Source: an uncultured Pseudomonadota bacterium (GTDB lineage: Bacteria; SAR324; NAC60-12). Taken from it: a stretch of 64,000 nucleotides of DNA. Location: contig CAYFLK010000001.1 of assembly GCA_964344035.1 (NCBI GenBank), positions 172 to 64,171 of the forward strand, written 5' to 3'. The notes beneath the pieces were generated by a model. That model was not told the DNA's origin and ran no database searches. It saw only the letters and a program-made list of their open reading frames with translations. The position numbers and the translations under genes are program-made. Each line of letters begins with the position of its first letter. The stretch's first letter is position 1. Shown here one piece after another: positions 1,401 to 18,154 of this stretch.

Positions 1401-2873
1401 ATGCGTATAAACACGATTCCTGTTGGATTACCTGATTTTAACTCAACCGTGCAAAATCACACTTCAGTTCTAAAACAGACCCCCTTCGGCAAAAGAATAT
1501 TCCCTCCGGACTTAATTCCCGGAAGGAAGCTGAAGGCGTTATTTCTACTGGTTTTCGCATTCATGATTCCGGGCATGTGCCTGGAAAATTCTGTTCCCTT
1601 CCAAAGCCCATCCGGTTATGCCGCGTATCCTCAAAACCCGGCAGAGAACCAGGATTATACCCGACAATCGATTTGGCGGGAGAAAACGCAATTAATCCCC
1701 TCAAGCCATGCGGAAATCACTTTGAACACAATCGGCTGGAAATCGGAAGATGTACATGCCGAATTTCTAAGGGAGCGGCATCCCTATCACATCAATCCCA
1801 TCGGCAGCCAGCTGTTCCGGATTTTTGTGGAATACGATCTTGTCAGCCGCCTGCGATATAAACGTGGCGTCGGACGCCTTTTTGAACACAAAACCGTGCA
1901 TGAACTTTCAGATTATCTGCAACAAAGCCGATGGTATAGGGAAGCATTGAAACGTTACACAACGTACGAGCAATACGGGTTTTCTGAAAACAGGATGGTC
2001 CGCACGCTGCTGGCAATGCACACGAGTGCACATTTTTTCGATGTCCCTTATCCCACCCTGTTTTGTCTTTTTTTTCAGGAATCAAAACTGGATTTCAAGG
2101 CAGTCAGCCGGACCGGAGCGAGGGGGATCGGGCAATTGACCTCGATCGCCTTAAGGGAAATGATCCGCCAAAGGAAAAGAAAAAGCAACGAGCAGCTGCT
2201 GCAAAGCGCTTACAGGCATTTGAACAGCATTTATCACGACCCCCTCATTCATGAGTGGATGGGGGAAATGGGCTTGCATCCGCGCTTCCCTCAACTTGAG
2301 GAACTGCCGAAATCGCTCCTTCCTGTACCTTCCACGCGCATGATCGTGCCGAAGGTCATACGTTCGTTAAAGTCCCGCGGAGCAGCATTTGCAAAAAATA
2401 CGGGGTTGGTGCGGCTGCTGATCCGCAAGGCTCAGTGGGGGGAAACACTGCCAATCCGGTATGCGCAAACACAACAGGTATTTGTGAACGTGCTTGAAAA
2501 AACCCAGGCCCGCAATCCCGCGAGCATACATCATATTGAAACCAATGTACTCCTGTCTTCAATGCTTTTCAGCCGCTATTACCGCTACCGCTGGAGTCAT
2601 CCGAAAGGCGCATTCAGCCTGAATCCCGGGTCCCGGGCACTGCTCGCGGTGGCCGCTTACAATCATGGCCCAAGCGGCGCCCGCCGGTTATTGATTCATT
2701 TACAAAACGAGTTTCCCAAACTGGATTTCGCGGATATTTCCGCGGTGGAATTAGCACGGTTGTTCACACCTATACGTTTGGCGAAGGCGCTGCGCCGGCC
2801 ATATCGAAAAGTCAGGGAGGCCGGCAGACATGTACGCCAAGTACTGCGATGTTCCAACAGCGGGTTCACTTGA
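1401..2873 (+). CDS. lytic transglycosylase (SLT) domain protein
   Basis: 490-aa ORF with the SLT-domain catalytic motif ESKLDFKAVSRTGARGIGQLTSIAL and a downstream AYNHGPSG. N-terminal hydrophobic segment. RBS-like GGAGGA lies upstream. Confidence 0.6.
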   Translation: MRINTIPVGLPDFNSTVQNHTSVLKQTPFGKRIFPPDLIPGRKLKALFLLVFAFMIPGMCLENSVPFQSPSGYAAYPQNPAENQDYTRQSIWREKTQLIPSSHAEITLNTIGWKSEDVHAEFLRERHPYHINPIGSQLFRIFVEYDLVSRLRYKRGVGRLFEHKTVHELSDYLQQSRWYREALKRYTTYEQYGFSENRMVRTLLAMHTSAHFFDVPYPTLFCLFFQESKLDFKAVSRTGARGIGQLTSIALREMIRQRKRKSNEQLLQSAYRHLNSIYHDPLIHEWMGEMGLHPRFPQLEELPKSLLPVPSTRMIVPKVIRSLKSRGAAFAKNTGLVRLLIRKAQWGETLPIRYAQTQQVFVNVLEKTQARNPASIHHIETNVLLSSMLFSRYYRYRWSHPKGAFSLNPGSRALLAVAAYNHGPSGARRLLIHLQNEFPKLDFADISAVELARLFTPIRLAKALRRPYRKVREAGRHVRQVLRCSNSGFT

Positions 2874-2893: not shown

Positions 2894-4594
2894 TCATTGA
2901 CCTGTTTTTGCGGGCAGACGATAGAGCACGAATTCCCCGGCATCACGGTCCCGTTTCAACAAAGGATGTTCGCGGATCAGGCTTTGCTCGTGTTTCTTTT
3001 TGGTAATCACGGAAATTGTTCGATTCCCCTTCGTATCGAGAATGGTTGGATCTCCCGGGAATTTATAGGTATGCAGCATGGTGATCGGCCGCCTGCCGTA
3101 AAACAGTGCGGCAAATGAAACGTAGCGGTAAAACACAAGGTGCTGCTTCTCCCTGTGCACTTCTTCAACCAGCGATAGCATCGGGTCCTGCAAGTAACTT
3201 AGCCCGAGAGGAACCTGGTACCTCCACAAACCCTGGGTCCAAAAGAGCATGCCTACGGCCATCAACGCAATTCCGGATTTCATCCATTTCAGGGCACAAG
3301 CGGCGCTTCCCAAAACAAACAGCAACAGCATCATGATCCCACACCAGTATATGGCCGCGGGAATAGCCCAATTGAACCCCGGAGTCACCTTCTCAATTTC
3401 ATTCTGTGCGAGATGGGGAAAAACCATGAACCCAACCGCAAGCAACACGCCGGTGAGTGGCAGCAATATCCAGAACCAGGGTGGGAAAACTGCTCCGGTA
3501 CGCATGCGGCTTTCCAGCATCGAAGCAGCCCACAGGGAAAGGGGGATGTAGACGGAGGCCGAGTAATGCGGAAGTTTCGTGCTAACCAGCGAAAAAAGGG
3601 CCAGCACGAACAGCACCCAACTAGCCGAAAGTCTCAGCAGCGGTGAAATCGTTGAATCGAAGCTGCCCGGTTTGAAAGGTCCGAGAAGCAGAACCGCTGT
3701 CCAAGGAAGCATGCCAAACAGGGCAGTCAGCCAGTGGTAATAAAACGGTCCGGTGTGTCCTTCCAGGGGACGGTTGAAAAGCATAAGCTGAAACCGGACA
3801 AAGCCCTTGATAAACTCGCTGCCATGGACCACCCAGTTTGCAGCGTACCAGGAACAAGCGACAGAAAGCGACAAAACTCCGCAAAAGATAAAATGCGTGA
3901 TCGGCACTTTGGGTTGGGGCGATAGAATCTTGTAACCCGCAAAAGCAACCAATGGGATTACTCCGCCAAGGGGGCCCTTGGTGAGCACAGCCAGTCCCAT
4001 GAAAATGCTTGCCGCAGTAAGCATGAACCAGTGCGACGTGAAGACCGGAGTGAGGGTAGAATGAAAATTGTCGTTTCCGGTACCGAATTTGTCCTTGTAC
4101 GGAGTGCTAACTTTTTGCCGCTGAAAAATGGAGTCATATGCGAGTAGGAGGCAGGCGGACAGGGCGATGAAGAGGTTAAATGTGTGATCGATCACCGCAC
4201 TGCGGGCGAACACGCCCGGCAAGAGGGACGTCAGGAATATCAGCCCCCAGAGCATTCCAAGGCGGTGTGAAAAAGCCAGGCGGCCAGCAGTATAACAAAC
4301 AATTGTCAGCAGCAGGCCGGAGACCGCCGAAGGAAACCTGGCGGCAAATTCACTTATGCCAAATAGATGATAGGCCGCTGATTGCAGCCAGAAGAAAAGA
4401 GGGGGTTTTTCCGCGAAAGGGTGATTGTTAATGGTGATGTTGAGATAGTCCCCCCGCAACACCATTTGACGGCTGGCTTCCGCATAGATGTTCTCGTCCC
4501 AGTCGATTAGTTCCGCGCTGTCAAGTCCCGGAAACAGCAGTATCAGGGCTAGAAGGACGAGAAAAAGCAGTTGCAGTCCTTCTGCTTGCCTCAC
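2894..4594 (-). CDS. ArnT/PMT_2-like glycosyltransferase (GT83/GT39 family; polyprenyl-phosphate sugar:acceptor transferase)
   Basis: 566 aa, multi-TM. N-terminal signature DWDENIYAEASRQM...GDYL...HPFAEKPPLFFWL matches ArnT/PMT-family loop 1. Overlaps the upstream gene by 4 nt, indicating operonic coupling. Confidence 0.7.
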   Translation of the reverse strand: MRQAEGLQLLFLVLLALILLFPGLDSAELIDWDENIYAEASRQMVLRGDYLNITINNHPFAEKPPLFFWLQSAAYHLFGISEFAARFPSAVSGLLLTIVCYTAGRLAFSHRLGMLWGLIFLTSLLPGVFARSAVIDHTFNLFIALSACLLLAYDSIFQRQKVSTPYKDKFGTGNDNFHSTLTPVFTSHWFMLTAASIFMGLAVLTKGPLGGVIPLVAFAGYKILSPQPKVPITHFIFCGVLSLSVACSWYAANWVVHGSEFIKGFVRFQLMLFNRPLEGHTGPFYYHWLTALFGMLPWTAVLLLGPFKPGSFDSTISPLLRLSASWVLFVLALFSLVSTKLPHYSASVYIPLSLWAASMLESRMRTGAVFPPWFWILLPLTGVLLAVGFMVFPHLAQNEIEKVTPGFNWAIPAAIYWCGIMMLLLFVLGSAACALKWMKSGIALMAVGMLFWTQGLWRYQVPLGLSYLQDPMLSLVEEVHREKQHLVFYRYVSFAALFYGRRPITMLHTYKFPGDPTILDTKGNRTISVITKKKHEQSLIREHPLLKRDRDAGEFVLYRLPAKTGQ

Positions 4595-6093
4595 GATCCA
4601 GCGCCTTTTTCCAGTCCCGCATCGGAAATTCCTGTCGCCATGCGGATATGCCTACGCTCCCCTTTTTCATCAAACATCTGCAACTGCCCGATTAGTATAG
4701 GCACCACTCGCTCCATTAACTCCCCTTTGACGTCTGAATCTAAATTTATCTGGTGCAGGGGCAGTTTCAAACGCACCTCATAAGGCGAATGCAGGAAAAC
4801 AAGGTGGCGGGTCGTCTGTTCCGTGTTAGCGAAGGAAGGATCACGGTGCAGTGTATTCCCGTTGTTAAAAACTGCGAATCCGTCAATTCCAACCAGCATG
4901 CACCAGAAACTGAAGCTGCGGAAAAGCTCGTCCAGGGTTTGGTCCTTGAGCAGGAACATATCCATGTTTTCCGAAATGCTCAGCATCAGGTTGCGTTGAC
5001 GTTTCATCCGGGGCTGCTTGCGCAGAGAGGCAAAAGGTTTTTTGATGATGTCATATTCCAGCGTAAGCAGCACCAGGTACGCAAGTAGAACCGCGGCAAG
5101 ATACAGGTAGGTGTGTAGGGCGGAGTCCAAGTGATAGATGCTGACCGCCAGTCCTCCGAAGACCAGGCTGACCATGAACAGGAAAAGAATTGCTTGCCAT
5201 GTTGAGAGTCCGCGGTTGAGCAGCCGGTGATGAAAGTGGTCCCGGTCAGCGGAATAAAACGGAATGCCGCGAAGATAACGTCTGAACAAAGAAAAGGAGG
5301 TATCCAGGATTGGAACTGCAAGAATAAGCACCGGCACCAGATTGACTGCCCCGCTTCCGGGCGCAGCCACTGACCGGAGGGAAAGTACGGCCAGCATGTA
5401 CCCGAGAAAAAGGCTTCCGGAATCACCCATGAACAAAGCCGCCGGGGGATTGTTGAACAGCCAGAAACCAAGAGTTGCGCCAAGAAGCGCAGCACACAGA
5501 ATCAATTCAACTTCTCTTCCATGGATAAAGGAGATATATCCCAAAAAACAAAGAGCGATCAAGGATATGCCTGAGGCAAGTCCGTCGAGGCCATCCACCA
5601 GGTTGACCGCGTTCATAATGCCGATGATCCAGAATAATGTCAGTGGGAACCCCATCCAGCCCAATTGCAGATTTGCGCCGAACAACGGCAAATCAAGCGT
5701 GTGTACCCGCAACCCGAAATAGCTTACCATTGCACCGATGAGGATCTGCCCCATCAATTTGTACCGCGCGCGAATTGGCCAGAGATCGTCAGCCAGTCCT
5801 AAAAGGAATGCTCCCAATGCCCCCGTCAGCAGGACAGGATCAGCGAGAAATTCAGGGCCGATGCCCCTTTCTGATGCGGGGAGCAGAAAAATGACCACAA
5901 CAGTCAGAAAAAAAGCACCGGCGATACCCAATCCTCCGAAACGTGAAATATTGCCACGGTGCTGGTCCCGCAGGCTTTGCGCTCGTGCAGTCTGTCGATG
6001 GCCGCTCATCCTGAAAAACACTATCAGTATCAATGCCGTGCTGAGTACAAGGCCGATGGTGAAGGTAAAGATGAGCAGTTTGGTGAGAGTCAT
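4591..6093 (-). CDS. WecA/MraY-family polyprenyl-phosphate sugar-1-phosphate transferase with ~170-aa extra C-terminal domain
   Basis: 500 aa. Conserved GT4-family motifs are present: DDLWPIRARYK, NAVNLVDGLDGLA, FMGDSGSLFLG, DRDHFHHRLL. The C-terminal ~170 aa after the last TM has no recognisable motif. Confidence 0.75.
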   Translation of the reverse strand: MTLTKLLIFTFTIGLVLSTALILIVFFRMSGHRQTARAQSLRDQHRGNISRFGGLGIAGAFFLTVVVIFLLPASERGIGPEFLADPVLLTGALGAFLLGLADDLWPIRARYKLMGQILIGAMVSYFGLRVHTLDLPLFGANLQLGWMGFPLTLFWIIGIMNAVNLVDGLDGLASGISLIALCFLGYISFIHGREVELILCAALLGATLGFWLFNNPPAALFMGDSGSLFLGYMLAVLSLRSVAAPGSGAVNLVPVLILAVPILDTSFSLFRRYLRGIPFYSADRDHFHHRLLNRGLSTWQAILFLFMVSLVFGGLAVSIYHLDSALHTYLYLAAVLLAYLVLLTLEYDIIKKPFASLRKQPRMKRQRNLMLSISENMDMFLLKDQTLDELFRSFSFWCMLVGIDGFAVFNNGNTLHRDPSFANTEQTTRHLVFLHSPYEVRLKLPLHQINLDSDVKGELMERVVPILIGQLQMFDEKGERRHIRMATGISDAGLEKGAGS

Positions 6094-6168
6094 GATAATA
6101 GATGAAAAACAGAGGGTTAGCGCACAACTAAGATACGCCAGTCATACAACCCTCGCAAGTCTTATGCC

Positions 6169-8013
6169 CTATTGATATCCGGATGCCTGAAGTTGAAACA
6201 ATTCCGCGTAGTGTCCCTGTTCCTTCAGCAGCTGTTCATGCGGACCGTCTTCAAGCAGTTTTCCCATGTGCAGCACCAGGATCCGGTCGGCCATGCGTAC
6301 GGTTGAGAAACGGTGGGAAATGAGCACGGCACATTTTTCGCGTGTCAATTCCACGAAGCGGCTGAAGATCTGGTGCTCAGCACGCGCGTCAAGGGCCGCG
6401 GTGGGTTCATCGAGGATCAGCAGTTCTGCGTCCCGCATGTATGCGCGTGCGAGGGCGATCTTCTGCCACTCTCCCCCGGAAAGGTTGGTGCCATGCCGGA
6501 ACCAGCGCCCTATGCGCTGATCATAACCATCTGGAAGACGCGCGATGACAGTGTCCGCGAGACTTCGTCGTGCGGCCTCGACTATCCTGTTCCGATTATT
6601 CAATTCCTCGATGCGGCCGACAGCGATGTTTTCCGAGGCTGTCAGGTGATACTTGACAAAATCCTGGAATATTACTCCAACAGAGTGACGCAGTTCATCC
6701 AGATCATACTCCCTCAGGTCCCGTCCGTCCAAAAGTATCCTTCCGCTGCTGGGATCATGCAGCCTGGTAAAAAGCTTGACCAGTGTTGTCTTGCCGGCGC
6801 CGTTCTCCCCGACGAGAGCCAGCTTCTCCCGAGACCGCAGTTTAAAAGAAACCCGGTTCAATACCATTTGATCGCTGTTCGGGTAATGAAAACTTACGTT
6901 TTCAAAAACGAAGCCCTGCCTCACCGGGGAAGGGAACCGAATGGCTTTGGGGGGTGTTTTCACTTGCGGTTCGAGCGCGAGGAAATCGAACAGGTCACTC
7001 AGATAAAGGGCGCTTTCGGCTATGGCTGAAAAACGGTTCAGCAGGCTTTCCATCAGGGTGCGCATGCGCAAAAATGAGCCGGAGAGAAAAGTCAGGTCTC
7101 CGAGGCTGAGACGCCCCTGCACGGTTTGGTAGATGATCACCGCGTAAGCAGTGTAATAACCTATGCTGCCGATGACCGAAAGCGAGCCCCCCCAGGCCGC
7201 TCTCCGCAGCGACAATGACCGGTTTACGCTATAAAATTCACTTGCCAGTCTGCGGTAGCGGGACTGAAGAAAATTCGACAAGCCGAAAATTTTCACTTCC
7301 TTTGCGGTTTCATCGCTGGCGCCGGCAAAGCGCAGGTAATCCAGCTCGCGTCTCTCCTCTGTCCATCCGTACATCAGCGAATAACTGAGCCCGGTGAAAT
7401 GGGTTTCCCCCAGAAACGCTGGAATCAGGGCGATTGCCAGAAAGAGCAGCAGCCACGCGTTAAAGGCAATAAGGGCTACCGAAAGGGAGACCACCGTCAT
7501 CATGTCCTGAACCTGGTTCAAGGTCTGGGACATCAGCAGGATGCGGTTAGAGGCTTGACGGCGGGCGCGCTCCAGTTTGTCGTAAAACTCGGAGTCCTCG
7601 AAATGCGCAATGTCCAGCATCGCCGCATGGTCCATCAGCTTGAGTGAAATGTCGTGTGAAACCAGATCACCCAGCAAACTGTCCACCACCGCAATCCCTC
7701 GTCCGGTCATGTCAGTCAAAGCCGCAAGTGCCAGTTCTATACCGACCAAGGTCCAAATATGGTTGAAATCAGGCGATTCCTGGTTTATCAGCCAAACCAC
7801 TTCATCGATGATCAGCTTGCCGACATACAGCATCCCGAGAGGTAGCAGGGCACGGACAATCCTGAGCAGCACGTTCGTCGCGCTAAGTCCCCGGTTGCAG
7901 GACCAGATCAGCATTATGAACCGGGGGAGGTTTCTCAGCGCGGACAATCTTTCAGCAACACTCAACTCCAGTTTGCTGCCATGTGGACCCCCTCGGGATT
8001 TGGAATGTGCCAT
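6169..8013 (-). CDS. ABC transporter permease/ATP-binding protein (MsbA-like exporter)
   Basis: 614 aa with an N-terminal 6-TM domain. Walker A GENGAGKTT, signature LSGGEWQKIALARA, Walker B LLILDEPTAALD. Confidence 0.85.
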   Translation of the reverse strand: MAHSKSRGGPHGSKLELSVAERLSALRNLPRFIMLIWSCNRGLSATNVLLRIVRALLPLGMLYVGKLIIDEVVWLINQESPDFNHIWTLVGIELALAALTDMTGRGIAVVDSLLGDLVSHDISLKLMDHAAMLDIAHFEDSEFYDKLERARRQASNRILLMSQTLNQVQDMMTVVSLSVALIAFNAWLLLFLAIALIPAFLGETHFTGLSYSLMYGWTEERRELDYLRFAGASDETAKEVKIFGLSNFLQSRYRRLASEFYSVNRSLSLRRAAWGGSLSVIGSIGYYTAYAVIIYQTVQGRLSLGDLTFLSGSFLRMRTLMESLLNRFSAIAESALYLSDLFDFLALEPQVKTPPKAIRFPSPVRQGFVFENVSFHYPNSDQMVLNRVSFKLRSREKLALVGENGAGKTTLVKLFTRLHDPSSGRILLDGRDLREYDLDELRHSVGVIFQDFVKYHLTASENIAVGRIEELNNRNRIVEAARRSLADTVIARLPDGYDQRIGRWFRHGTNLSGGEWQKIALARAYMRDAELLILDEPTAALDARAEHQIFSRFVELTREKCAVLISHRFSTVRMADRILVLHMGKLLEDGPHEQLLKEQGHYAELFQLQASGYQ

Positions 8014-8116
8014 AACTAAAATTGTCGGCCGGGAAACGATGCGCGCCGCACTCTTCCAGGAAGCACCGGATTCTTATTTGGGGGGAGGACTGGATGCACA
8101 GGAATATAACGCGAAG

Positions 8117-8737
8117 TCATCCTGAATGTGAACGAATGGCAGGATCCCAATCCGGGGCAGTGTAAAGAGTGTTTATCAATTGAACGGGATATTCGATCAG
8201 GTCCCACATGTCCATGTGTTTTTGGGCCATGAATTTTTCGCTGATTGCCTGTTTCATCATGTCCTGGAAAACGTTGAAATATCCACGGGTATTGACCAAC
8301 ACAATCGGGCCGAGATAAAGTCCCAGTCTTTTCCAGGTCAAGGCTTCCATGAGTTCCTCGTACGTTCCGCATCCGCCCGGAAGTGCGACTATGCCGTCAA
8401 CTTCCTCAATCATCATGCGCTTGCGCTCATGCAGATCATTAACGATATGCAGTTCGCTCAGCCCTGGGTGTCCCCATTCAAGTTTGTGCATGAATTGCGG
8501 AAGCACCCCGATCACCCTTCCTCCTGCTTCCAGTGCACCGTCGGCAAGGGCGCCCATCGAACCGACCGAACCGCCCCCGTACACAACGCACACTTCGTGC
8601 TGTGCTAGAATTCGTCCGGTTTCCGCGGCAATGACGCGGAATTCCTGAGCGGGCAGAGTGCTTGACGCGCAATAGACGCAGACTCTTCGCAGCAGCCTGC
8701 GCTTTTGATTTAATGCCGTAAAGTTCGTTTCTTCCAT
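8117..8737 (-). CDS. LOG family protein (cytokinin riboside 5'-monophosphate phosphoribohydrolase-like)
   Basis: 206 aa with LOG signatures VYGGGSVGSMGALADGAL and ALPGGCGTYEELMEALTW. Confidence 0.85.
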   Translation of the reverse strand: MEETNFTALNQKRRLLRRVCVYCASSTLPAQEFRVIAAETGRILAQHEVCVVYGGGSVGSMGALADGALEAGGRVIGVLPQFMHKLEWGHPGLSELHIVNDLHERKRMMIEEVDGIVALPGGCGTYEELMEALTWKRLGLYLGPIVLVNTRGYFNVFQDMMKQAISEKFMAQKHMDMWDLIEYPVQLINTLYTAPDWDPAIRSHSG

Positions 8738-8768
8738 AAATGAATCTACTTCTTTTTTTCCGGATTGC

Positions 8769-9254
8769 TTAGAGCAGGCGGTACATCACATGGGCGTCCA
8801 CCAGTCCGTGGTTGGGATGATTGAACGCTTCCGGGAGCGTGCCTATAATCTGGAAACCCATGGCCTGCCACAAGCGAACAGCCCCGGAGTTGGTTGAAAC
8901 CACGAGGTTATACTGCATTGCGTGAAATCCCAGTGCTGCCGCGGTTTCCAGTGAATGTGCGCACATTTTCCTGCCGATGCCCGACCCGCGTCGGTTTGCG
9001 GAAACCATGTAGCCGACGTTGCACACGTGGCTTCCATTTCCCGGATGGTTGGGTTTAATGTAATACGTCCCAAGGACAGCACCTCCCGCTTTTGCCACAT
9101 AAGTTGCCGAGGGATGATCCATCCATGTCATGTATAATTCCACCTCTGTGGAATCAATGGGCAGGGCATAGGTTTCCCCTTTCCGGACCACTTCTTTAAT
9201 GATCGGCCATATCCGAGGCCAATCTTCTTCTTCCGCAAGCTCGATTTTCAGCAT
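8769..9254 (-). CDS. GNAT family N-acetyltransferase
   Basis: 161 aa. Acetyl-CoA binding motif RRGSGIGRKM (Q/RxxGxG/A) and typical GNAT length. Confidence 0.8.
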   Translation of the reverse strand: MLKIELAEEEDWPRIWPIIKEVVRKGETYALPIDSTEVELYMTWMDHPSATYVAKAGGAVLGTYYIKPNHPGNGSHVCNVGYMVSANRRGSGIGRKMCAHSLETAAALGFHAMQYNLVVSTNSGAVRLWQAMGFQIIGTLPEAFNHPNHGLVDAHVMYRLL

Positions 9255-9267
9255 TTCAGGTCACACG

Positions 9268-10770
9268 TTATGTTTCAATGTTCAGAGTCGGTTTGAATTC
9301 AGGTGGTTTGCGAGCCTGTGTCGCCTGCTCGAATGCGTAAGCATAACTGATAAGTTTTGGTTCTTTCCACGGTCCTGAGAAAAAAGTAATGCCTACCGGG
9401 AGACCGGATACGGAACCGGCTGGTACCGTGATTCCCGGATAGCCGGCCACCGCGGAAGGGGTTGCACTTTGCGGGGCAGGGATGCGATCTCCCTGTTCAC
9501 AATTAGTGAGCCATGCCGGTTCTCCAGAAGGGGCGATATAGGCATCCAGCCGATGACGTTTCAACATCTTGTCAATCCCTTCTGTGCGGGAGAGTCTCCG
9601 GCATTCTGACAGGGAATGCCGGTAATCCATGCTTTCGAGCCCGTTCCGCATGGCAGCCTTGAGGAACATTTCCTGGCCGAAATGCGGCATCACCTGTTTA
9701 CTGTGCTTTTCGTTGTATGCAATTAACTCATCGAGCGAATGTGTACAGGCCGATGGCGGCAAGGCCGAAAGGTAACGGTTGATAGCATCCAGGAACTCAT
9801 GGAGTAAGACTTCCTGTTCAGGTATCTTGAGCATTTCAGTGTTATCCAGAAAAACCGGATCAACGAGTTCGATGCCGAGTTCCCGGAGCAAAACAAGGCA
9901 TGAATCCATGATTCTGTTGACAGCTGAGTTGTTGCCGAACAGGTTTCGTGCAACTCCGATCCTTGCCCCTTGAAGTCCATTGACGTCAAGAAACCGGGTG
10001 AAATCAAAGTTTGGTTTAAAGGGACTGCTCCATTCTGCTCGATCTTTTGGGTCGTTCTCCGCAAGGACACTGAGCATTACCGCCGCATCGGTAACGTTCC
10101 GGGAAATCGGACCAGCGGTGTCCTGGCTTTTTGATATCGGAACGATGCCGAAACGGCTGACGAGCCCGACTGTTGGTTTCAAGCCTACCACTCCATTGGC
10201 ATGGGCCGGACAGAGTATCGATCCGTCGGTTTCAGTCCCGACCGCTGCTGCGCAAAGTTCCGCGGAAACCGCAACCGCCGAACCGGAACTCGAACCTCCG
10301 GGATTGTGGTCCAGAGCATAAGGGTTACGGGTTTGGCCGCCGCGACTGCTCCAACCGCTGGTTGATCGCGTGGAACGGAAATTAGCCCACTCGCTGAGGT
10401 TGGTTTTACCCAGGATGATCGCACCGGCGTCACGGATGCGACGCACCAGGAAAGCATCCTGTTGTGCAATCGAATGCTGCAATGCCAAAGACCCCGCGCT
10501 TGTTGCCATGCGGTCGGCTGTGCCGATGTTGTCCTTGAGCATCACCGGTATCCCGTGCAGCGGGCCCAAAACCTGTCCCTGTTTTTGTTTCAGGTCCATC
10601 TGTTGGGCTGTCTCCAGCGCTTCCGGATTGATCTCGATCACCGAATTCAGTTTAGGGCCTAGCCGGTCAATGGTTTCGATTCGATGCATGTAGTAACGAC
10701 ACAGTTCCACTGATTCCAATTCTCCGGCGGCCAATTTTGCTCGCATTTCCGGAATGGGTAATTGATTCAC
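9268..10770 (-). CDS. amidase (amidase-signature family)
   Basis: 500 aa with the AS-family signature GGSSSGSAVAVSA and a Ser-cisSer-Lys context (KDNIGT...GKTNLSEWA). Confidence 0.9.
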   Translation of the reverse strand: MNQLPIPEMRAKLAAGELESVELCRYYMHRIETIDRLGPKLNSVIEINPEALETAQQMDLKQKQGQVLGPLHGIPVMLKDNIGTADRMATSAGSLALQHSIAQQDAFLVRRIRDAGAIILGKTNLSEWANFRSTRSTSGWSSRGGQTRNPYALDHNPGGSSSGSAVAVSAELCAAAVGTETDGSILCPAHANGVVGLKPTVGLVSRFGIVPISKSQDTAGPISRNVTDAAVMLSVLAENDPKDRAEWSSPFKPNFDFTRFLDVNGLQGARIGVARNLFGNNSAVNRIMDSCLVLLRELGIELVDPVFLDNTEMLKIPEQEVLLHEFLDAINRYLSALPPSACTHSLDELIAYNEKHSKQVMPHFGQEMFLKAAMRNGLESMDYRHSLSECRRLSRTEGIDKMLKRHRLDAYIAPSGEPAWLTNCEQGDRIPAPQSATPSAVAGYPGITVPAGSVSGLPVGITFFSGPWKEPKLISYAYAFEQATQARKPPEFKPTLNIET

Positions 10771-11882: not shown

Positions 11883-12782
11883 TTACTGCAGACAGTTTCT
11901 TAAAGACCGTGCGAGGTTTTCCATGAGGGTGAAATACAAATCCGGTCCGGGTATCAGGTCCGCTCCGAGTGGGTCCAGTTCAGCGATTCTGACACTGGTT
12001 TCGGATGCGATGACTTGAACCAGTTTTGGCGTGAATTGAGGTTCAGTGAAAATGCAACGGACCCCGGAGTCACTGATTAGTTTACGCAGGTTCTGTAATT
12101 TTTTGGCTCCGGGGCTAAATTCAGTCCCGGTGTTGAATTCACCTATTCGCATGAGTCCATAGCGCTGTTCTAAATAAGAATAAGCAGGATGAAAGACAAT
12201 GTATGGCTTTTCGATAACGGGTTTTAATTGCCGTCCTAAACTAGAGTGTAAATCCTGCAGACGCAGTTGCATGTTATTGCCATTGGAATGGTATGTTTCA
12301 GCATGGCCAGGGTCAATCCTGGATAAATGCAAGACGACCTCAGAGACAATGATTTTTGCATTCAAAGGATCCAGCCAGATATGAGGGTCAAATGAATACT
12401 GATGATCATGCTCATCATGTGGGACTGACTCTGAACTTTCCCACTCAAGCAGTTCCATTTTTTCGCTATCCAGCAACGGCACTGTGTTCGCATGAAATGC
12501 TAATGACTTCAATGGTTTTTCAAGAAATTTCTCGAGTGCTTCACCCAGCCAGAAGATGACTTCAGCATTCTGAAGGGTTTTTGCCTCGCTTGGACGCAGC
12601 ACATAAGTGTGGGGGGTGGCAATACCCTTCACCAGTAGCTGAGGTTCTCCGACTCCTTCCATTACACCCGCAACCAGCGAGTGCAAAGGCTTGATGGATA
12701 CAAGCACACTAGGGACCGAGGCGAATGCCATGTTGGCGATCAAAGATGCTGTGAGGATTAATACAGAAATATTGATTTTCAT
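11883..12782 (-). CDS. znuA: zinc ABC transporter substrate-binding protein ZnuA
   Basis: 299 aa with a signal peptide and the cluster-9 SBP fold. His/acidic-rich loop SSESVPHDEHDHQYSFDPHIWLDP. Genomic context with zur, znuC and znuB. Confidence 0.85.
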   Translation of the reverse strand: MKINISVLILTASLIANMAFASVPSVLVSIKPLHSLVAGVMEGVGEPQLLVKGIATPHTYVLRPSEAKTLQNAEVIFWLGEALEKFLEKPLKSLAFHANTVPLLDSEKMELLEWESSESVPHDEHDHQYSFDPHIWLDPLNAKIIVSEVVLHLSRIDPGHAETYHSNGNNMQLRLQDLHSSLGRQLKPVIEKPYIVFHPAYSYLEQRYGLMRIGEFNTGTEFSPGAKKLQNLRKLISDSGVRCIFTEPQFTPKLVQVIASETSVRIAELDPLGADLIPGPDLYFTLMENLARSLRNCLQ

Positions 12783-12811
12783 CGGCAGCCTTGTATTTCA
12801 ATGTGGTTAAA

Positions 12812-12826
12812 TGTAATATTATAACA
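12812..12826. promoter_or_regulatory. Zur-box-like palindrome in znuA/zur divergent promoter
   Basis: TGTAATATTATAACA is a near-perfect inverted repeat. It resembles the Zur operator consensus (TGTTATAWTATAACA). It sits between the divergent znuA and zur starts. Confidence 0.6.
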
Positions 12827-12860
12827 AAAACAAGATCATTATCAATATCGTATTGCCTTC

Positions 12861-13361
12861 ATGAGGGAAAACCGCATGTCCCAGACAACGGATTATCCGT
12901 TTCAGGAACACAACCACCAAAACTGCCAGGCAAGGGTCCTTGCTGAAGCGGAAAGAATATGCCGGTCACGCGGCGCCCGTCTTACCCGCCTGCGACGGCA
13001 TGTGCTGGAGATCGTCTCACGCAGTCATGCTCCGGTTGGAGCTTATGACATACTTGAGCAGATGAATTCAAACGGGCGACGGCAAGCGCTGATCTCTGTA
13101 TATCGTGCCCTGGATTTTCTCATGGACCAGGGGCTTGTGCACCGATTGAGCAGTTTGAACGCCTTCATTGCCTGTATGCTTTCCAGCAGGAGCCATTCCG
13201 CGCTGTTTTTGATATGCCGGAGTTGCCGTACTGTCGCCGAACTTTACAGCTCTACAGTGGAAAAGATGATCAGAAATGATGCTGGAAACGAGGGTTTTAT
13301 TGCAGAAAATCAAATGGTTGAAGTCAGAGGGGTGTGCCGGTACTGTGAAAGGGGGAAATGA
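12861..13361 (+). CDS. zur: Fur-family zinc uptake regulator Zur
   Basis: 166 aa with an N-terminal winged-helix segment ([13 protein letters not shown]...) and C-terminal CxxC pairs (CRSC...CRYC). Adjacent to znuCB; 4-nt overlap with znuC. Start may be Met6 (12876). Confidence 0.8.
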
Positions 13362-14125
13362 CTGCTTCAGAAGATACAGTGTTGATTCAGGCGCGTGATC
13401 TTTCTTTAGGCGATAAGCAGGCAATTATTGACGGAGTTTCCATTGCCGTATTTCCGGGGGAAATTGTTACCGTCGTAGGTCCCAATGGTGCAGGAAAAAC
13501 GACTTTGCTTCGCCTGCTGCTCGGGTTGATTTCACCAGACAGCGGAAAAGTCAACCGGCGCAAGGGATTGAGGATCGGGTACCTTCCACAAAAAATTACG
13601 ATAGATCCGGTATTTCCAATATCAGTTGTGAGGATGATGACGTTGACAACCGGAATCAACCGTGTCGCGGCCTCGAGTGCTTTACTAGAAACCGGTGTGG
13701 AAGCCCTGATTGATGAACCGGTGCACACACTTTCCGGTGGAGAATTTCAGCGTATGATGCTTGCCCGGGCCCTGCTTCGCAATCCTGAACTGCTTGTATT
13801 GGACGAACCCGTGCAAGGGGTAGATTATCTTGGGGAGACGGAAATGTACGGCCTTATCACCAGGCTGCGTGAAAAACGTGGGTGCGGAGTGCTGATGGTG
13901 TCGCATGATCTGCACGTGGTGATGGCTTCAACCGACCGGGTAGTTTGTCTCAACCGGCATGTCTGCTGCCAAGGCCGTCCGAGGGAAGTTTCGCGACATC
14001 CTGAATACCTCAGGCTCTTCGGGATGGAATCCGGGCCAGGACTGGCATTTTATCCCCATCATCATGATCACACCCACCATCTTTCCGGAGAAGTGGAAAA
14101 AGGGCCCAAGGCAGAAGAAACTTAA
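13358..14125 (+). CDS. znuC: zinc ABC transporter ATP-binding protein ZnuC
   Basis: Walker [10 protein letters not shown], signature [15 protein letters not shown], Walker B LLVLDEP. Has a His-rich C-terminal tail, HHHDHTHH. Confidence 0.85.
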
Positions 14126-14139
14126 AGAGGAAGAACAGA

Positions 14140-14934
14140 TTGGTATTCGATGATTTCATCTGGCGCGCCGTCATCGCAGGTGCCGGGGTGGCAATAGCCG
14201 CGGGTCCTCTGGGTTGTTTCGTGGTCTGGAAAAGGCTTGCCTACTTCGGTGACACCATGGCGCATTCCGCGCTGCTTGGCGTGGCCCTTGGCTTTATGCT
14301 TGGAATTGAGCCGATGTTCGGCGTAATCGCCATCGGCATGGCCGTCGCAGTTTCACTTTCTGTTTTCATGCGCCAACGCAAACTGGCAAACGACACAGTG
14401 CTGGGCACTCTTTCGCATACGTCACTGGCCCTCGGCATTCTAGTCATCAGCATGATGACTTGGGTGCGGGTGGACCTGATGGGATACTTGTTCGGAGACA
14501 TTCTCGCGGTCACGCGCATGGACCTGTTCAGGATCTTCTTGGGAAGTGCGCTGGTTTTGATCATCCTCATCCGCTTTTGGCGTCAATTGCTGGTGGTAAC
14601 TCTTGACGAGGAACTGGCGCGAGCTGAGGGACTGCCAGCATGGCGGTTCCAGATTTTGCTGATGCTGATTATAGCCGGAGTGATCGCACTGGCAATGAAA
14701 ATCGTCGGCATTCTTCTCGTCACATCCCTGCTGATTATCCCCGCGGCTGCTGCAAGGCGTTTCAGCCGCACCCCGGAACAGATGGCGTTCGGCGCCGTTC
14801 TCATCGGCAATCTATCCGTCGTGCTCGGCATCCTGGCGTCTTTGCATCTTGACACCCCAGCCGGACCTTCAATTGTCGTAGCAGCAATGCTGTTTTTTGT
14901 TTTTGGACAGGTCCCTCTTGGACGCCTTTCCTGA
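14140..14934 (+). CDS. znuB: zinc ABC transporter permease ZnuB
   Basis: 264 aa, about 8 TM, ABC-3 family pattern. Immediately downstream of znuC. Confidence 0.85.
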   Translation: MVFDDFIWRAVIAGAGVAIAAGPLGCFVVWKRLAYFGDTMAHSALLGVALGFMLGIEPMFGVIAIGMAVAVSLSVFMRQRKLANDTVLGTLSHTSLALGILVISMMTWVRVDLMGYLFGDILAVTRMDLFRIFLGSALVLIILIRFWRQLLVVTLDEELARAEGLPAWRFQILLMLIIAGVIALAMKIVGILLVTSLLIIPAAAARRFSRTPEQMAFGAVLIGNLSVVLGILASLHLDTPAGPSIVVAAMLFFVFGQVPLGRLS

Positions 14935-15035: not shown

Positions 15036-17552
15036 TCAACGAGACAAACCGGCATCAGGACCATAGGGTTTGATGAACACAATCAGCCTCGGAAGAAGGG
15101 TCAATGCTGCAACCAGAGCAATCAGCATGGCAAGCCCGGTGAGGAGACCGAAATAAATGCTCGGGATGAAGTTAGAAAGCACGAGGATGGAAAAGCCGAT
15201 GATCACCGTGATGGAAGTGTAGTACATGGCATAACCGATGCTTCCGTGGGCGCGGTGCATGGTAGCGGAATAATCGCGGTCTGTTCCGAATTCATGCTGG
15301 AACCGGTAGATGTAGTGGATTGTGTTGTCCACGGCAATCCCCATGCTGATCGCTGCAATGGTGATGGTCATCAGGTCCAGGGGGATCCCTGCCCACCCCA
15401 TGAATCCCAGCACGACACCAATGGAAAGCAGGTTCGGAAAAAGCGCGATGAGCGAAATTGTTACCGAACGGAAGAGGATCAGAAACATTGCGAACAGTGC
15501 CGCAACAACCGCTCCGAGGGTCAGGATTTGTGAATTGAACAGGCTTTGCAGCATGTTGTTGTAAAGTACAAGCAGGCTGGCCAGATGAGTCCGCTTTTCA
15601 GGCAGATTCAGCTCATTTTTCAGTCCGCCGCGGATTTTCTTGAGCAGTTCATTGCGTCGCAGGTCAGGTTGGGAATCACGGACACGCACCGAGACACGGG
15701 CCTGGTTGTTTTCCACTGAAACATAGGGCGAAAGGATTATGTTGCGGAATTCTGCAGGCAGTTCGTTGTAGACGAGAGCGAGCAAGAAATTGTCCAGGGG
15801 TTTTCCTTCATTGAGCTTTCTGCCGACTTTGAGGAGGGTCGCCAGTGAGAGGACCTTCCCGGTTTCAGGAAGTCCGTCAAGGTAATCGTGCAACTGCTCC
15901 AGTTGTTTCATTTTATCGGTGGTGAACCAGTATTGCGCCTCTCCCTCTGTCTCCGCGAATTCTTCCTCAAATGAATCGAATTCGTCTTCCTCTTCTGCCG
16001 CATTTTCAGTGATTTCTACTTCAGAAAGTAGAGCGGATTCGTCCTCTCCCTCGAAATCGAGGACCACGTCGAGGGTCGTCGTTCCTCCGAGTTGCTGGTC
16101 GATGACCTTCATTCCCTGGTATATTTCTGTCGATTCCTTGAAATAATCGATGAAGCTGTTTTCCACCTTTAACTGCATTGCGCCTCCGACGCTAAGCAGC
16201 AGGACGGTGGCGCTAACCCAGAGGATGCGGTTGCCCTGGCGCTCAGTGAATCTGGCAAAGAACTGTGTCAGCGCAAACTTGGATTCAAAAGAAATGTTAG
16301 GCGTCAACCGCGCAAACTGCATCTGCAGCGCAGGAAATAGAAGGAAGGTCAACATCAGGGAAACCGCGACCCCGGCGCTCATCATCCAGCCGAAATTGAT
16401 CACCGGGAGGATACCGGAGAGAATCAGCGAACTAAACCCGGCAATAGTGGTCAGCACAGTGTAAAGACATGGTTGGGCCATAAACACCACCGTGTCGAGG
16501 ACAAGCTGCCGATGTGATTTTTCCGGTTGGGTGCGGGCCAGTTCCCGGTAACGCACAATCAGGTGGATAGTGATCGCCATGGTGATGATCAACTGCAAGG
16601 AAATGAAGTTTGAGGAAATCACCGTCACTTCCCAGCCGAACATGCCCAGCAGTCCGGTTGTCGCAATCACCGAAAAAGAGCAAGTCAGCACCGGCAGAGC
16701 CACCCAGCGTAATTGGCGGAAAATAAATGTCAGTGTGAAGATCAGAAAAACCAGGACTCCTATGCCGAAAATCTGCAGGTCGTTTTTTATGAAGCTGACC
16801 AGGTCGTCGGCTATCATTGCCAGTCCCCCGAGAAACAGCTCTGAATTCCCCCGGTATTGGTCCAGCAGTGTCCGTATCCGTGCGACGTTTTTGCTTTCCA
16901 CGACGCGCATCTTGTCCCGATGTGCCTTGTATTCAGCCTCTACCCTTTCATATTCCAGTTCCTCCCGCCCGCTCAGAATTCCGGCTTTTTCCTTGCGGCG
17001 CAGTTCATCCCTGCGTTCGCGCAGCTCCCGGTTGACATGGTCGTCATGGAGATTGACAATCAACGCGGTGGTTTTGAAATCACTACTGACCAGGTTGTCC
17101 TGGTAGACAGGACTGCGCAGGAATTCCTGTTTAGCCAGTTCGCGTTCAATTCCCGGGGATTCCAGCGTGGGTATGTTTTCAAGCAGTTCCTTCACCGGCT
17201 TCGGAGGACTTTCAAGCAGGGGCACATTGAGAATAGAGGTCACCGATTCCACGCGCTCCAGTTTTTCGAGGTCGCGGCTCAGACTGCGGATCGTCTCCAG
17301 CGTATCGTCGGACAGCAGATCGGTTTCAGGAGTGAATGTGACGACGAGGAAATCCGGGGTGTAGTAACGGTTGCTGATAAGCCGGGTGTACTCCAGGTCT
17401 TTGTCGTCTTCAAGCAGCAGCGTTTCCGATGAGGCGTCGATTTCGAGTCTGCGTGCCTCGAAACCCAGGAAGGCGACTGAAATGAGGATCAGCAGGAGGA
17501 CGGTTTTGGGATATTGGAGGATAACCCTGCCGTAAAAATGGCGGAGGTTCAT
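15036..17552 (-). CDS. MMPL/RND-superfamily transporter (HpnN-like lipid exporter family)
   Basis: 838 aa with two TM bundles, each preceded by a large periplasmic domain. The second periplasmic domain carries a strongly acidic insert, EITENAAEEEDEFDSFEEEFAETEGE. 4-nt overlap with upstream mlaC. Confidence 0.7.
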   Translation of the reverse strand: MNLRHFYGRVILQYPKTVLLLILISVAFLGFEARRLEIDASSETLLLEDDKDLEYTRLISNRYYTPDFLVVTFTPETDLLSDDTLETIRSLSRDLEKLERVESVTSILNVPLLESPPKPVKELLENIPTLESPGIERELAKQEFLRSPVYQDNLVSSDFKTTALIVNLHDDHVNRELRERRDELRRKEKAGILSGREELEYERVEAEYKAHRDKMRVVESKNVARIRTLLDQYRGNSELFLGGLAMIADDLVSFIKNDLQIFGIGVLVFLIFTLTFIFRQLRWVALPVLTCSFSVIATTGLLGMFGWEVTVISSNFISLQLIITMAITIHLIVRYRELARTQPEKSHRQLVLDTVVFMAQPCLYTVLTTIAGFSSLILSGILPVINFGWMMSAGVAVSLMLTFLLFPALQMQFARLTPNISFESKFALTQFFARFTERQGNRILWVSATVLLLSVGGAMQLKVENSFIDYFKESTEIYQGMKVIDQQLGGTTTLDVVLDFEGEDESALLSEVEITENAAEEEDEFDSFEEEFAETEGEAQYWFTTDKMKQLEQLHDYLDGLPETGKVLSLATLLKVGRKLNEGKPLDNFLLALVYNELPAEFRNIILSPYVSVENNQARVSVRVRDSQPDLRRNELLKKIRGGLKNELNLPEKRTHLASLLVLYNNMLQSLFNSQILTLGAVVAALFAMFLILFRSVTISLIALFPNLLSIGVVLGFMGWAGIPLDLMTITIAAISMGIAVDNTIHYIYRFQHEFGTDRDYSATMHRAHGSIGYAMYYTSITVIIGFSILVLSNFIPSIYFGLLTGLAMLIALVAALTLLPRLIVFIKPYGPDAGLSR

Positions 17553-18154
17553 GACTCCTGCTCCCGGGGTGTTTTCAGTTCCTCGAGCAGTACGTCAAAT
17601 TTGTGTTTCTTCAGGACTGCGGAAAACTGGGTTCGGTAAGTCTGAATGACGCTAACTCCCTCCACGTCCAGGTCATAAACAAGCCAGCCACGTTTCTTGT
17701 TTTTGTAAAATTTGAATATTATTTCGTAGCTGTCTCCCTTGCTCAGCAGGTATGTTTTCAACTGTACACGCCCTTTCTTGATTTTTTTTGCGTCATCCAG
17801 CAATACCTTTTCATCCGTATAGATGTCGAGTTTTTCGATGTAGAACTGCTGGATACGTTTGACAAACAATTCAGTGAACTCACTGCGCTGAACCGGATTC
17901 AGGGTTTTCCAGGTTTTCCCCAGGCTCAACCGCGACATCAGATTGAAATCAAAAAATGTGTTTGCTTCTTCAATGATGCGGTTGTTGCGTGTTGGTTTGT
18001 CAAGGGACTTGTCATTCAACAAGGCGACCACGACATTGACTTTTTCCTTGGTCATCCGGTTAATTTCCGCGGTTTCATTTGCATAGAGCAATGATGGGGA
18101 AAAGAACAAACACAGGGCAATGATCGAACTGTTTTTAAATTTGTGCATAATCAC
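17549..18154 (-). CDS. mlaC: phospholipid-binding periplasmic protein MlaC (Ttg2D family)
   Basis: 201 aa with a signal peptide. The C-terminal block WLVYDLDVEGVSVIQTYRTQFSAVLKKHKFDVLLEELK aligns with E. coli MlaC ...[35 protein letters not shown]. Confidence 0.8.
   Translation of the reverse strand: MIMHKFKNSSIIALCLFFSPSLLYANETAEINRMTKEKVNVVVALLNDKSLDKPTRNNRIIEEANTFFDFNLMSRLSLGKTWKTLNPVQRSEFTELFVKRIQQFYIEKLDIYTDEKVLLDDAKKIKKGRVQLKTYLLSKGDSYEIIFKFYKNKKRGWLVYDLDVEGVSVIQTYRTQFSAVLKKHKFDVLLEELKTPREQES

Follow-up and report, generated by a model that had tools for sequence, protein, structure and literature searches.

The 64,000-nt stretch of SAR324 DNA analyzed here (the window) carries three co-directional genes on the minus strand that encode a GT-C glycosyltransferase, a WecA/MraY-family transferase (hereafter GT4) and an ABC exporter. 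The genes, domains and adjacent features are as follows:

1401–2873, plus strand: SLT-domain protein (PF01464), convergent to the trio and outside the module proposed for it
2894–4594, minus strand: ArnT/PMT_2-type GT-C glycosyltransferase (566 aa, GTG start)
4591–6093, minus strand: WecA/MraY-family (GT4, polytopic) polyprenyl-phosphate sugar-1-phosphate transferase (500 aa)
5056–6093, minus strand: catalytic membrane domain of GT4 (residues 1 to ~346, ~11 TM helices)
4594–5058, minus strand: cytoplasmic C-terminal domain of GT4 (residues ~346–500)
6169–8013, minus strand: ABCB-type half-transporter, an exporter (614 aa, or 581 aa from M34)
8103–8132, minus strand: promoter-like site upstream of the ABC gene (TTCACA-18-TATATT, weak consensus match)

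The open reading frames agree exactly with the coordinates and orientation assigned in an earlier, sequence-only reading of this DNA, including an overlap of 4 nt between two of the genes. GT4 ends in GGA TCG TGA and the GTG start of the GT-C gene lies within tcGTGAgg, so that the two genes share GTGA. The same 4-nt overlap was present in an independent gene call on L118, a contig of the same species. The ABC and GT4 genes are separated by 75 nt in which neither a promoter-like nor a terminator-like site was found, and the counts of promoter-like sites across the region did not exceed the shuffled expectation. The 4-nt overlap combined with the absence of promoter and terminator signals between the genes implies co-expression, and the trio probably is co-transcribed as a single unit. 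The family identities proposed earlier also were borne out: PF00953, PMT_2/PMT and ABC_tran were detected with Pfam, and the best NCBIfam models were those for WecA, ArnT and MsbA, respectively, with scores that all fall far below the equivalog cut-offs. No glycan genes other than these were found in the 64-kb window.

The GT-C protein matches PF13231 and PF02366 (PMT_2/PMT) with 43.8 bits against a threshold of 26.1 and 42.8 bits against 22.7, respectively, and possesses the acidic motif of the first loop. Its only relative among PDB sequences is ArnT, the lipid A 4-amino-4-deoxy-L-arabinose transferase (5EZM; E = 4e-18), with which it shares the GT-C membrane fold, as judged by sequence, and the signature elements of GT83/PMT_2 enzymes, namely the first-loop DE...YAE, EKPP and a second Asp. 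Thus, D33-E34, E62-K63-P-P and D136 align with the ArnT signature residues; across 23 orthologues D31-W-D33-E34 and K63-P-P are invariant and D136 is nearly so. In contrast, the His pair of ArnT is not retained (R267/Q269), and the score with the ArnT model PRK13279 is 91.3 bits compared to a cut-off of 567. Orthologues are distributed over SAR324, Lambdaproteobacteria, Leptospira and Bacteroidota. Neither the genes of an arn operon (ArnB/C/A/D and related genes) nor a GT2 donor synthase was found within the 64-kb window, and a single AglJ/DPM1-type GT2 gene was the only such gene located next to an orthologue (L087). Assignment of the protein as ArnT proper was rejected on both score and gene context. 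Characterized ArnT/PMT-family enzymes use polyprenyl-monophosphate sugars as donors, not diphosphate-linked ones, and an AglJ/DPM1-type GT2 is the usual donor synthase for ArnT-type GT-C proteins. By this family precedent, the GT-C protein would use a polyprenyl-monophosphate sugar provided by a separate GT2 enzyme and would modify a periplasmic acceptor, either lipid A/LPS or protein, independently of the product of the WecA-like enzyme.

The ABC protein resembles MsbA, PglK and other ABCB half-transporters along its whole length at the family level, with a fused TMD-NBD exporter organization and a score of 120 bits for ABC_tran; PF00664 was not matched at E ≤ 0.01. Its start is ambiguous: the first ATG gives 614 aa, whereas the gene caller selected M34 to give 581 aa. 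The protein is about equally similar to the structures of ABCB1, Atm1 and MsbA. Unlike genuine MsbA and PglK, it lies below every equivalog cut-off, with 278 bits for MsbA (TIGR02203; cut-off 602) and 141 bits, confined to the NBD region, for PglK (NF050066; cut-off 1000), and its adjacency to GT4 is not conserved. Identification as either protein was rejected on these scores and the absence of synteny. The window encodes another ABC exporter (50181–52244) with a higher MsbA score of 369 bits. The description of the gene product as MsbA-like stands only at the family level, and its dedication to the neighboring genes is not supported. The protein may be viewed best as a generic ABCB-type exporter.

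The sequence-only reading had interpreted the trio as a dedicated glycoconjugate module that might constitute an undescribed pathway, and had named a lack of co-occurrence in relatives as grounds for refutation. Such a lack was observed: the full trio was recovered elsewhere only in L118, within the same species. The ABC orthologue was near none of ~15 other loci with usable flanks that encode GT4 with its C-terminal tail, nor was it present at GT-C loci. GT4 is followed by the GT-C gene in only one further lineage, represented by L090 and L091 (99% identical to each other), in which the order GT4–GT-C–SLT recurs with proteins that are 43–49% identical to those of the window. As this order is repeated in so diverged a lineage, the adjacency is either old or recurrent and could reflect a functional link between GT4 and GT-C. 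The SLT gene is the most conserved neighbor and serves as a synteny anchor, with an orthologue after GT4 or GT-C in L081, L082, L088, L091, L092 and L118. Elsewhere the context varies. Most SAR324 GT4-tail genes adjoin either an STT3/PglB-like transferase gene, in the arrangement STT3/PglB-like–GT4–EamA (L084, L104, L107, L108, L113–115 and L117), or GT1 and epimerase genes, in the arrangement GT1–epimerase–GT4 (L085, L105 and L106). An fmt–GT4–SLT context is found in L081, L082 and L092, and Wzy_C or Wzm/Wzt genes are near the GT4-tail gene in L085 and L083, respectively.

These patterns bear on whether the trio, or at least the GT4/GT-C pair, is a real if unusual pathway in which Und-PP-HexNAc is produced by the WecA-like enzyme and flipped by the ABC protein in the manner of PglK, and the GT-C protein attaches the sugar to lipid A or protein in the periplasm. 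Translational coupling through the 4-nt overlap, the signal-free 75-nt gap and the order conserved in L090/L091 would fit such a pathway. Moreover, STT3, with which GT4-tail is paired in the other clade, is itself a GT-C-superfamily enzyme, and the glycolipid flippase PglK, whose model the ABC protein matches, is one of the ABCB-type half-transporters. However, that match is far under the cut-off, and no other GT4-tail or GT-C locus has the ABC orthologue. Four SAR324-type GT-C orthologues (L086–L089) are located apart from any GT4 or ABC gene, including the one that adjoins the AglJ/DPM1-type GT2 gene, and the GT4 of L092 shares 88% identity with that of L090, but its gene is followed directly by the SLT gene without GT-C at the site. 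The monophosphate-linked donors of the ArnT/PMT family also argue against transfer of a diphosphate-linked sugar. A common pathway therefore appears improbable. The favored interpretation, which we consider likely, instead is that three envelope genes are arranged here in a manner specific to the species and probably form one transcription unit, but do not constitute a dedicated pathway. As the proposed new glycosylation pathway fails, the importance of the finding is limited, and only the ~150-residue tail domain of the enzyme that initiates the sugar chain stands out in the region as unusual.

The synthesis of precursors for O-antigen, teichoic acid, capsule and N-glycans is gated by polytopic phosphoglycosyl transferases, which usually are viewed as stand-alone membrane enzymes. 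The GT4 protein belongs to this superfamily, which includes MraY, WecA and WbpL, with 149.3 bits for PF00953 (Glycos_transf_4; threshold 27) over residues 87–240, ~11 TM helices and a cytoplasmic C-terminus. Scores with the models for WecA proper (TIGR02380; 127.1 bits, cut-off 326) and MraY proper (TIGR00445; 76.9 bits, cut-off 192) are well below those required. The cytoplasmic loops bear the motifs DDxxD, NxxNxxDGxDGL, FMGDSGS and DxDHxHHR, corresponding to the DDxxD, NxxNxxDGxDGL, (F/V)FMGDxGS and His-rich last-loop motifs that have catalytic roles in WecA and MraY. The earlier inference of a full complement of catalytic motifs is upheld, as D102-D103, N161/N164/D167/D170, F221-MGDSGS-227 (which includes D224) and D285-H286-x-H288-H289-R290 are invariant across 25 homologues. 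The ~11-TM domain would transfer sugar-1-phosphate from a UDP-sugar to undecaprenyl phosphate at the cytoplasmic face and thereby start a lipid-linked glycan; the moiety moved most likely is HexNAc-1-P. The glycan loci occupied by the GT4-tail genes of relatives are as expected of an initiating enzyme such as WecA. Whereas classical WecA, a UDP-GlcNAc:undecaprenyl-phosphate GlcNAc-1-P transferase, is about 350–370 aa in length without any such extra domain, the SAR324 enzyme adds a folded cytoplasmic domain of ~150 aa. More than 100 full-length homologues of GT4 with its tail were recovered at 41–48% identity, and those that are named are from SAR324.

The C-terminal extension had been described as cytoplasmic and ~170 residues long. 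Its location is corroborated by the K/R-rich catalytic loops, the two further TM helices that follow them and the 21 K+R residues of the tail itself. The length requires correction because residues ~332–350 form the last TM helix, leaving a soluble tail of about 150 aa (residues 351–500). The claim that the extension has no recognizable similarity was sustained insofar as this conserved domain matches no described domain: no match was obtained in Pfam or among PDB sequences, and the tail by itself retrieved no homologues in a word-indexed search. Homologues were recovered instead by full-length searches and by an exhaustive profile search. The latter, conducted with the tail against 1.84 billion representatives, gave only 41 matching clusters, in all of which the match sits C-terminally (~340–490) in a GT4 protein and never as a separate full-length gene. 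Residues E346, Y347, R367, W397, D452, S453, D454 and K456 are invariant in alignments A1 and A2, and the D452-S-D-x-K456 motif is maintained throughout the homologue alignments. The lack of a database match might suggest that the tail is an artefact, caused by read-through or a fused ORF, or a functionless disordered linker. This explanation has next to no probability, since the tail-bearing architecture recurs in >100 independent homologues of 480–510 aa from many samples, and the tail has invariant residues and a confidently predicted fold and is found only in fused form; artefact was rejected as effectively refuted by conservation. Thus, by alignment and structural modeling the tail is a real, folded and conserved domain that is almost confined to the SAR324 lineage. 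A literature search on C-terminal domains of polytopic phosphoglycosyl transferases and on SAR324 glycosylation found nothing relevant. We view the protein as the SAR324 version of a glycan-initiating enzyme that carries an accessory domain not described before and whose gene lies in an arrangement particular to the lineage.

An alternative is that the tail is not specific to the lineage, but has evolved rapidly within a widespread and unnamed family of cytoplasmic domains of ~130–190 aa that WecA-like enzymes also carry in Myxococcota, Acidobacteriota, UBP6 and others. Such tails surfaced by chance when a contig scan with the full-length GT4 alignment, dominated by matches to generic GT4 motifs, yielded almost no SAR324 loci: tails without a Pfam match but of comparable length and layout, in which a GY-E membrane exit is followed by a basic helix, a β-region and a terminal helix, were present in 12 of 80 WecA-family loci from outside SAR324. 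Divergent true members (P0135, P0137, P0139 and L001) likewise begin with GYEE, and hhalign placed the SAR324 tails (A2) and the other-phylum tails (A3) collinearly over 123 columns with a pairwise P = 0.014. However, the hhalign probability for this pair is only 3%, and the divergent members (A6) form no bridge, with 99% for A6 against A2 and P = 0.12 for A6 against A3. Furthermore, hmmsearch at E ≤ 1 retrieved none of the other-phylum tails, these lack the D-S-D-x-K motif, and the exhaustive profile search recovered only its 41 clusters. Homology with the Myxococcota and Acidobacteriota tails was supported by none of three tests, and a shared widespread domain is unlikely.

The fold of the tail was predicted by AlphaFold with pLDDT values of 82 and 84 and pTM values of 0.69–0.74. 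The models comprise basic juxtamembrane helices followed by an α-β-β-β-β-α core, a small α-β-α sandwich, and place the D-S-D-x-K motif on the surface, at the N-cap position of the final helix. The best Foldseek matches consistently are domains of Roadblock/LC7/longin type (MP1/p14/LAMTOR, Asgard Roadblock and the C-terminal domains of Rag), with probabilities of 0.9–0.97, TM ~0.5 and E-values of 0.05–0.2, which are below significance. The low TM scores of the whole tail are due to its N-terminal helices, and a trimmed core gave a cleaner Roadblock-like signal that also was sub-significant. The predicted core resembles Roadblock/LC7/MglB and longin-type domains in its succession of helix, β-hairpin, short helix, β-hairpin and long helix, but has four strands instead of five, and shows neither sequence similarity to Roadblock/LC7 proteins nor a match to PF03259. 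With these differences and the E and TM values noted, membership in Roadblock/LC7 is not established.

The tail may provide a platform under the active site for dimerization or for scaffolding/regulation, rather than a second catalytic domain. That an abundant, uncultured lineage of the ocean conserves a folded extension with an invariant motif of its own points to regulation or complex assembly when the glycan is initiated. A bolder reading, that the tail is a previously unrecognized Roadblock-like regulatory or scaffold domain which controls or organizes the first committed lipid-linked glycan step in SAR324 and has structural counterparts in the Myxococcota and Acidobacteriota tails, is doubtful. 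A domain of this type could, for example, mediate enzyme dimerization, dock the next glycosyltransferases or sense cytoplasmic signals via D-S-D-x-K and, if so, would represent a widespread, unstudied regulatory layer on polytopic phosphoglycosyl transferases. Other WecA-family proteins also are polytopic enzymes with a C-terminal add-on, in that case TM helices with CoA_binding_3 (PF13727), but this extension is a known one, brings additional TM helices and a Rossmann-like fold, and bears no relationship to the SAR324 tail. Various types of C-terminal extension thus are common in the polytopic family, yet undescribed.

The three minus-strand genes for which the sequence-only reading had proposed an undescribed glycoconjugate pathway were found as open reading frames at precisely the positions that it reported.

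Open reading frames of the gene trio
2894..4594, minus strand: GT-C, an ArnT/PMT_2-type transferase of 566 aa with a GTG start
4591..6093, minus strand: GT4, a WecA/MraY-family phosphoglycosyl transferase of 500 aa
6169..8013, minus strand: ABC, an ABCB-type exporter of 614 aa

The reported 4-nt overlap also was verified: GT4 ends with GGA TCG TGA, and the GTG start of GT-C lies inside tcGTGAgg. The gene call for another contig of the same species (L118) gives the same structure, except that ABC starts 33 codons later. The 75-nt gap between ABC and GT4 contains no promoter- or terminator-like site, the promoter-like site upstream of ABC (8132-8103) is weak, and site counts in the region do not exceed those of shuffled sequence. 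From these observations co-transcription of the three genes is a plausible inference. No other glycan genes were found in the 64-kb window. The genes upstream of ABC (8117-10770, minus strand) encode LOG/TIGR00730-family, GNAT and amidase proteins; an amidase also lies near the tailed GT4 genes of L084 and L096, which constitutes loose regional synteny.

All of the enzymes are members of known superfamilies. Pfam matches were to Glycos_transf_4 for GT4 (149 bits, residues 87-240), to PMT_2 and PMT for GT-C, and to ABC_tran for ABC. The top NCBIfam matches were WecA (127 bits versus a cut-off of 326), ArnT (91 versus 567) and MsbA (278 versus 602), respectively. Thus, the labels WecA-like, ArnT-like and MsbA-like hold as family-level kinship, but with every score under its cut-off the proteins are not equivalogs. 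Public homologues already are named 'MraY family glycosyltransferase', 'glycosyltransferase family 39 protein' and similar. In the GT-C protein, the signature D-E of ArnT's first loop is retained, together with E-K-P-P and the second Asp, whereas the His pair of ArnT is not kept. A second ABCB-type exporter in the window (50181-52244, minus strand) possesses a canonical ABC_membrane domain and scores higher than ABC against the MsbA model (369 versus 278 bits); the TTG given as its start creates a 137-nt overlap with the aminotransferase reading frame upstream, and the true start probably is later.

The novelty resides in the C-terminal tail of GT4, which belongs to a domain family not described before and confined to SAR324-type WecA homologues. 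Hydropathy scanning located ~11 transmembrane segments in residues 1-350, with the catalytic motifs in K/R-rich loops on the cytoplasmic side. As two further helices (301-319 and 332-350) follow these loops and return the chain to the cytoplasm, residues 351-500 (21 K+R) also are cytoplasmic. The location of the tail therefore is as the sequence-only reading had it, but the length is ~150 rather than ~170 residues. The catalytic motifs are complete, as claimed: D102, D103, N161, N164, D167 and D170 are invariant in an alignment of 25 sequences, as are F221-MGDSGS, D285, H286, H288, H289 and R290. Within the tail, E346, Y347, R367, W397, D452, S453, D454 and K456 are invariant, and K383, D384, S393, G457 and V463 nearly so. 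A full-length search recovered >100 proteins of ~480-510 aa (41-48% identity, 88-98% query coverage); those with named hosts all derive from SAR324 cluster bacteria or 'Deltaproteobacteria' MAGs, and their sole recorded domain is PF00953. The assertion that the tail lacks recognisable similarity was borne out, with no match in Pfam (best E 0.09) or, by sequence, in the PDB. When HMMER was run with a tail-only profile on 1.84 billion cluster representatives (E <= 1e-3), only 41 proteins matched, and the tail thus is confined to a narrow group. The matches were fragments or proteins of 478-509 aa aligned at ~340-490, so that the tail always is fused to GT4. One MAG not labelled SAR324 (L001, Dive96_bin4.205) carries a divergent copy, and hhalign gives a probability of 99% for the match between such divergent members and the main family. 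The extension is a genuine domain, conserved and narrow in its distribution.

AlphaFold2 modeling of the tail alignment gave pLDDT 82 and pTM 0.69 (84 and 0.74 for the trimmed core). The model begins with four short helices and a longer helix, followed by an antiparallel sheet of four strands whose hairpins are separated by a short helix, and ends in a long C-terminal helix; the D-S-D-x-K motif lies at the junction of the last strand and last helix. This fold tentatively belongs to a class characteristic of platforms for dimerisation and scaffolding, a resemblance that is no evidence of family membership. The preferred reading, itself rated at less than even odds, is that the tail may form a cytoplasmic platform for dimerisation, partner docking or regulation.

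At 80 genome loci surveyed in other phyla, ~12 WecA-family reading frames bear Pfam-less cytoplasmic tails of 130-190 aa (L002, L003, L006, L008, L010, L027, L029, L036, L041, L042, L046 and L056; Myxococcota, Acidobacteriota, UBP6 and Terriglobia) with a layout like that of the SAR324 tail. Profile-profile comparison with these short tails was weak (P = 0.014, probability 3%), divergent SAR324-type tails provided no bridge to them (P = 0.12), and HMMER with the SAR324 tail did not detect them; homology at the sequence level is unproven. A further ~10 reading frames at the 80 loci have tails of 260-285 aa, including proteins of ~600-630 aa (L045, L048, L062, L069, L070, L072, L074, L076 and L080), and hosts of these ~270-aa tails are Nitrospirota, Chloroflexota, Planctomycetia, Omnitrophota and Pyrinomonadaceae. 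The two that were scanned (L070, L045) contain extra transmembrane helices and CoA_binding_3 (PF13727), a module normally positioned at the N-terminus of WbaP/PglF-type proteins. With both short and long tails present, C-terminal additions are common in the WecA family.

The sequence-only reading had proposed co-occurrence of the three genes in relatives as a check; the complete trio was recovered solely in the window species.

Neighbourhoods of tailed GT4 genes (SLT, SLT-domain gene, 1401..2873, plus strand, in the window)
ABC → GT4 → GT-C → SLT(-): window species only (L118)
fmt → GT4 → GT-C → SLT(-): L090/L091 (99% identical, counted as one lineage)
fmt → GT4 → SLT(-) → QueG, without GT-C: L081, L082, L092
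STT3/PglB-like → GT4 → EamA(-): L084, L104, L107, L108, L113, L114, L115, L117
GT1 → UDP-GlcNAc 2-epimerase upstream of GT4: L085, L105, L106
Wzy_C downstream of GT4: L085
Wzm/Wzt ~3 kb from GT4: L083, L099

A whole GT-C gene separates GT4 from the convergent SLT gene in L090/L091 and is absent from L081 and L092, the latter having a mere 40-nt gap. As the GT4 proteins of L092 and L090 are 88% identical, close relatives are polymorphic for whether GT-C occupies this site. Unrelated contexts surround four GT-C orthologues (L086-L089), which share 47-54% identity with the protein of the window; of these, L088 retains GT-C → SLT(-) → QueG without GT4. No ABC orthologue was detected by tblastn at the compared loci, where the sole hits were nucleotide-binding domain matches of 27-32% to unrelated ATPases. 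With ABC absent from the other tailed GT4 loci, and GT-C mostly absent or unlinked, an undescribed pathway is unsupported; it is improbable, and keeps a small probability because the GT4/GT-C adjacency is old and the genes overlap by 4 nt. Most simply, GT4 → GT-C → SLT would be the ancestral order in one SAR324 branch, broken repeatedly, and ABC would have been placed upstream of GT4 in this species only. A large SAR324 clade has the tailed GT4 gene immediately downstream of a gene for an STT3/PglB-like oligosaccharyltransferase of ~790 aa (L084:5470-7836), with GT1 and UDP-GlcNAc 2-epimerase genes further upstream in L084; this may be an N-glycosylation-type locus.

The complete catalytic apparatus of GT4 and its recurrent presence in glycan loci, among them those where it adjoins the STT3/PglB-like oligosaccharyltransferase gene, identify it by sequence as the SAR324 form of a glycan-initiating polytopic phosphoglycosyl transferase. 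Its product would be an Und-PP-sugar, probably with HexNAc as WecA is the top model. The GT2 gene adjoining GT-C in L087 matches AglJ (229 bits) and dolichyl-phosphate hexose transferase models; enzymes of this class synthesise the polyprenyl-monophosphate sugars that ArnT/PMT-type GT-C enzymes use as donors. Given this neighbor and family precedent, GT-C most likely would transfer a single sugar from polyprenyl-P-sugar to a periplasmic acceptor. ABC is a putative generic exporter. This overall picture is considered fairly probable, an estimate that does not extend to the specific role of the tail.

Elsewhere in the window, an operon at 15036-19218 (minus strand) encodes an MMPL-family transporter (838 aa), MlaC and MlaA, a lipid-trafficking cluster. 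At 32576-35403 (minus strand), Hydantoinase_B is split between two reading frames (33236-34069 and 32576-33178) and the match of the adjoining Hydantoinase_A frame is limited to the end of the N-terminal domain; probably, the region is a pseudogene with a frameshift or was misassembled. A znuA/Fur-family/znuC/znuB zinc-uptake cluster occupies a patch of lower G+C (0.45-0.48) at 11883-14934.
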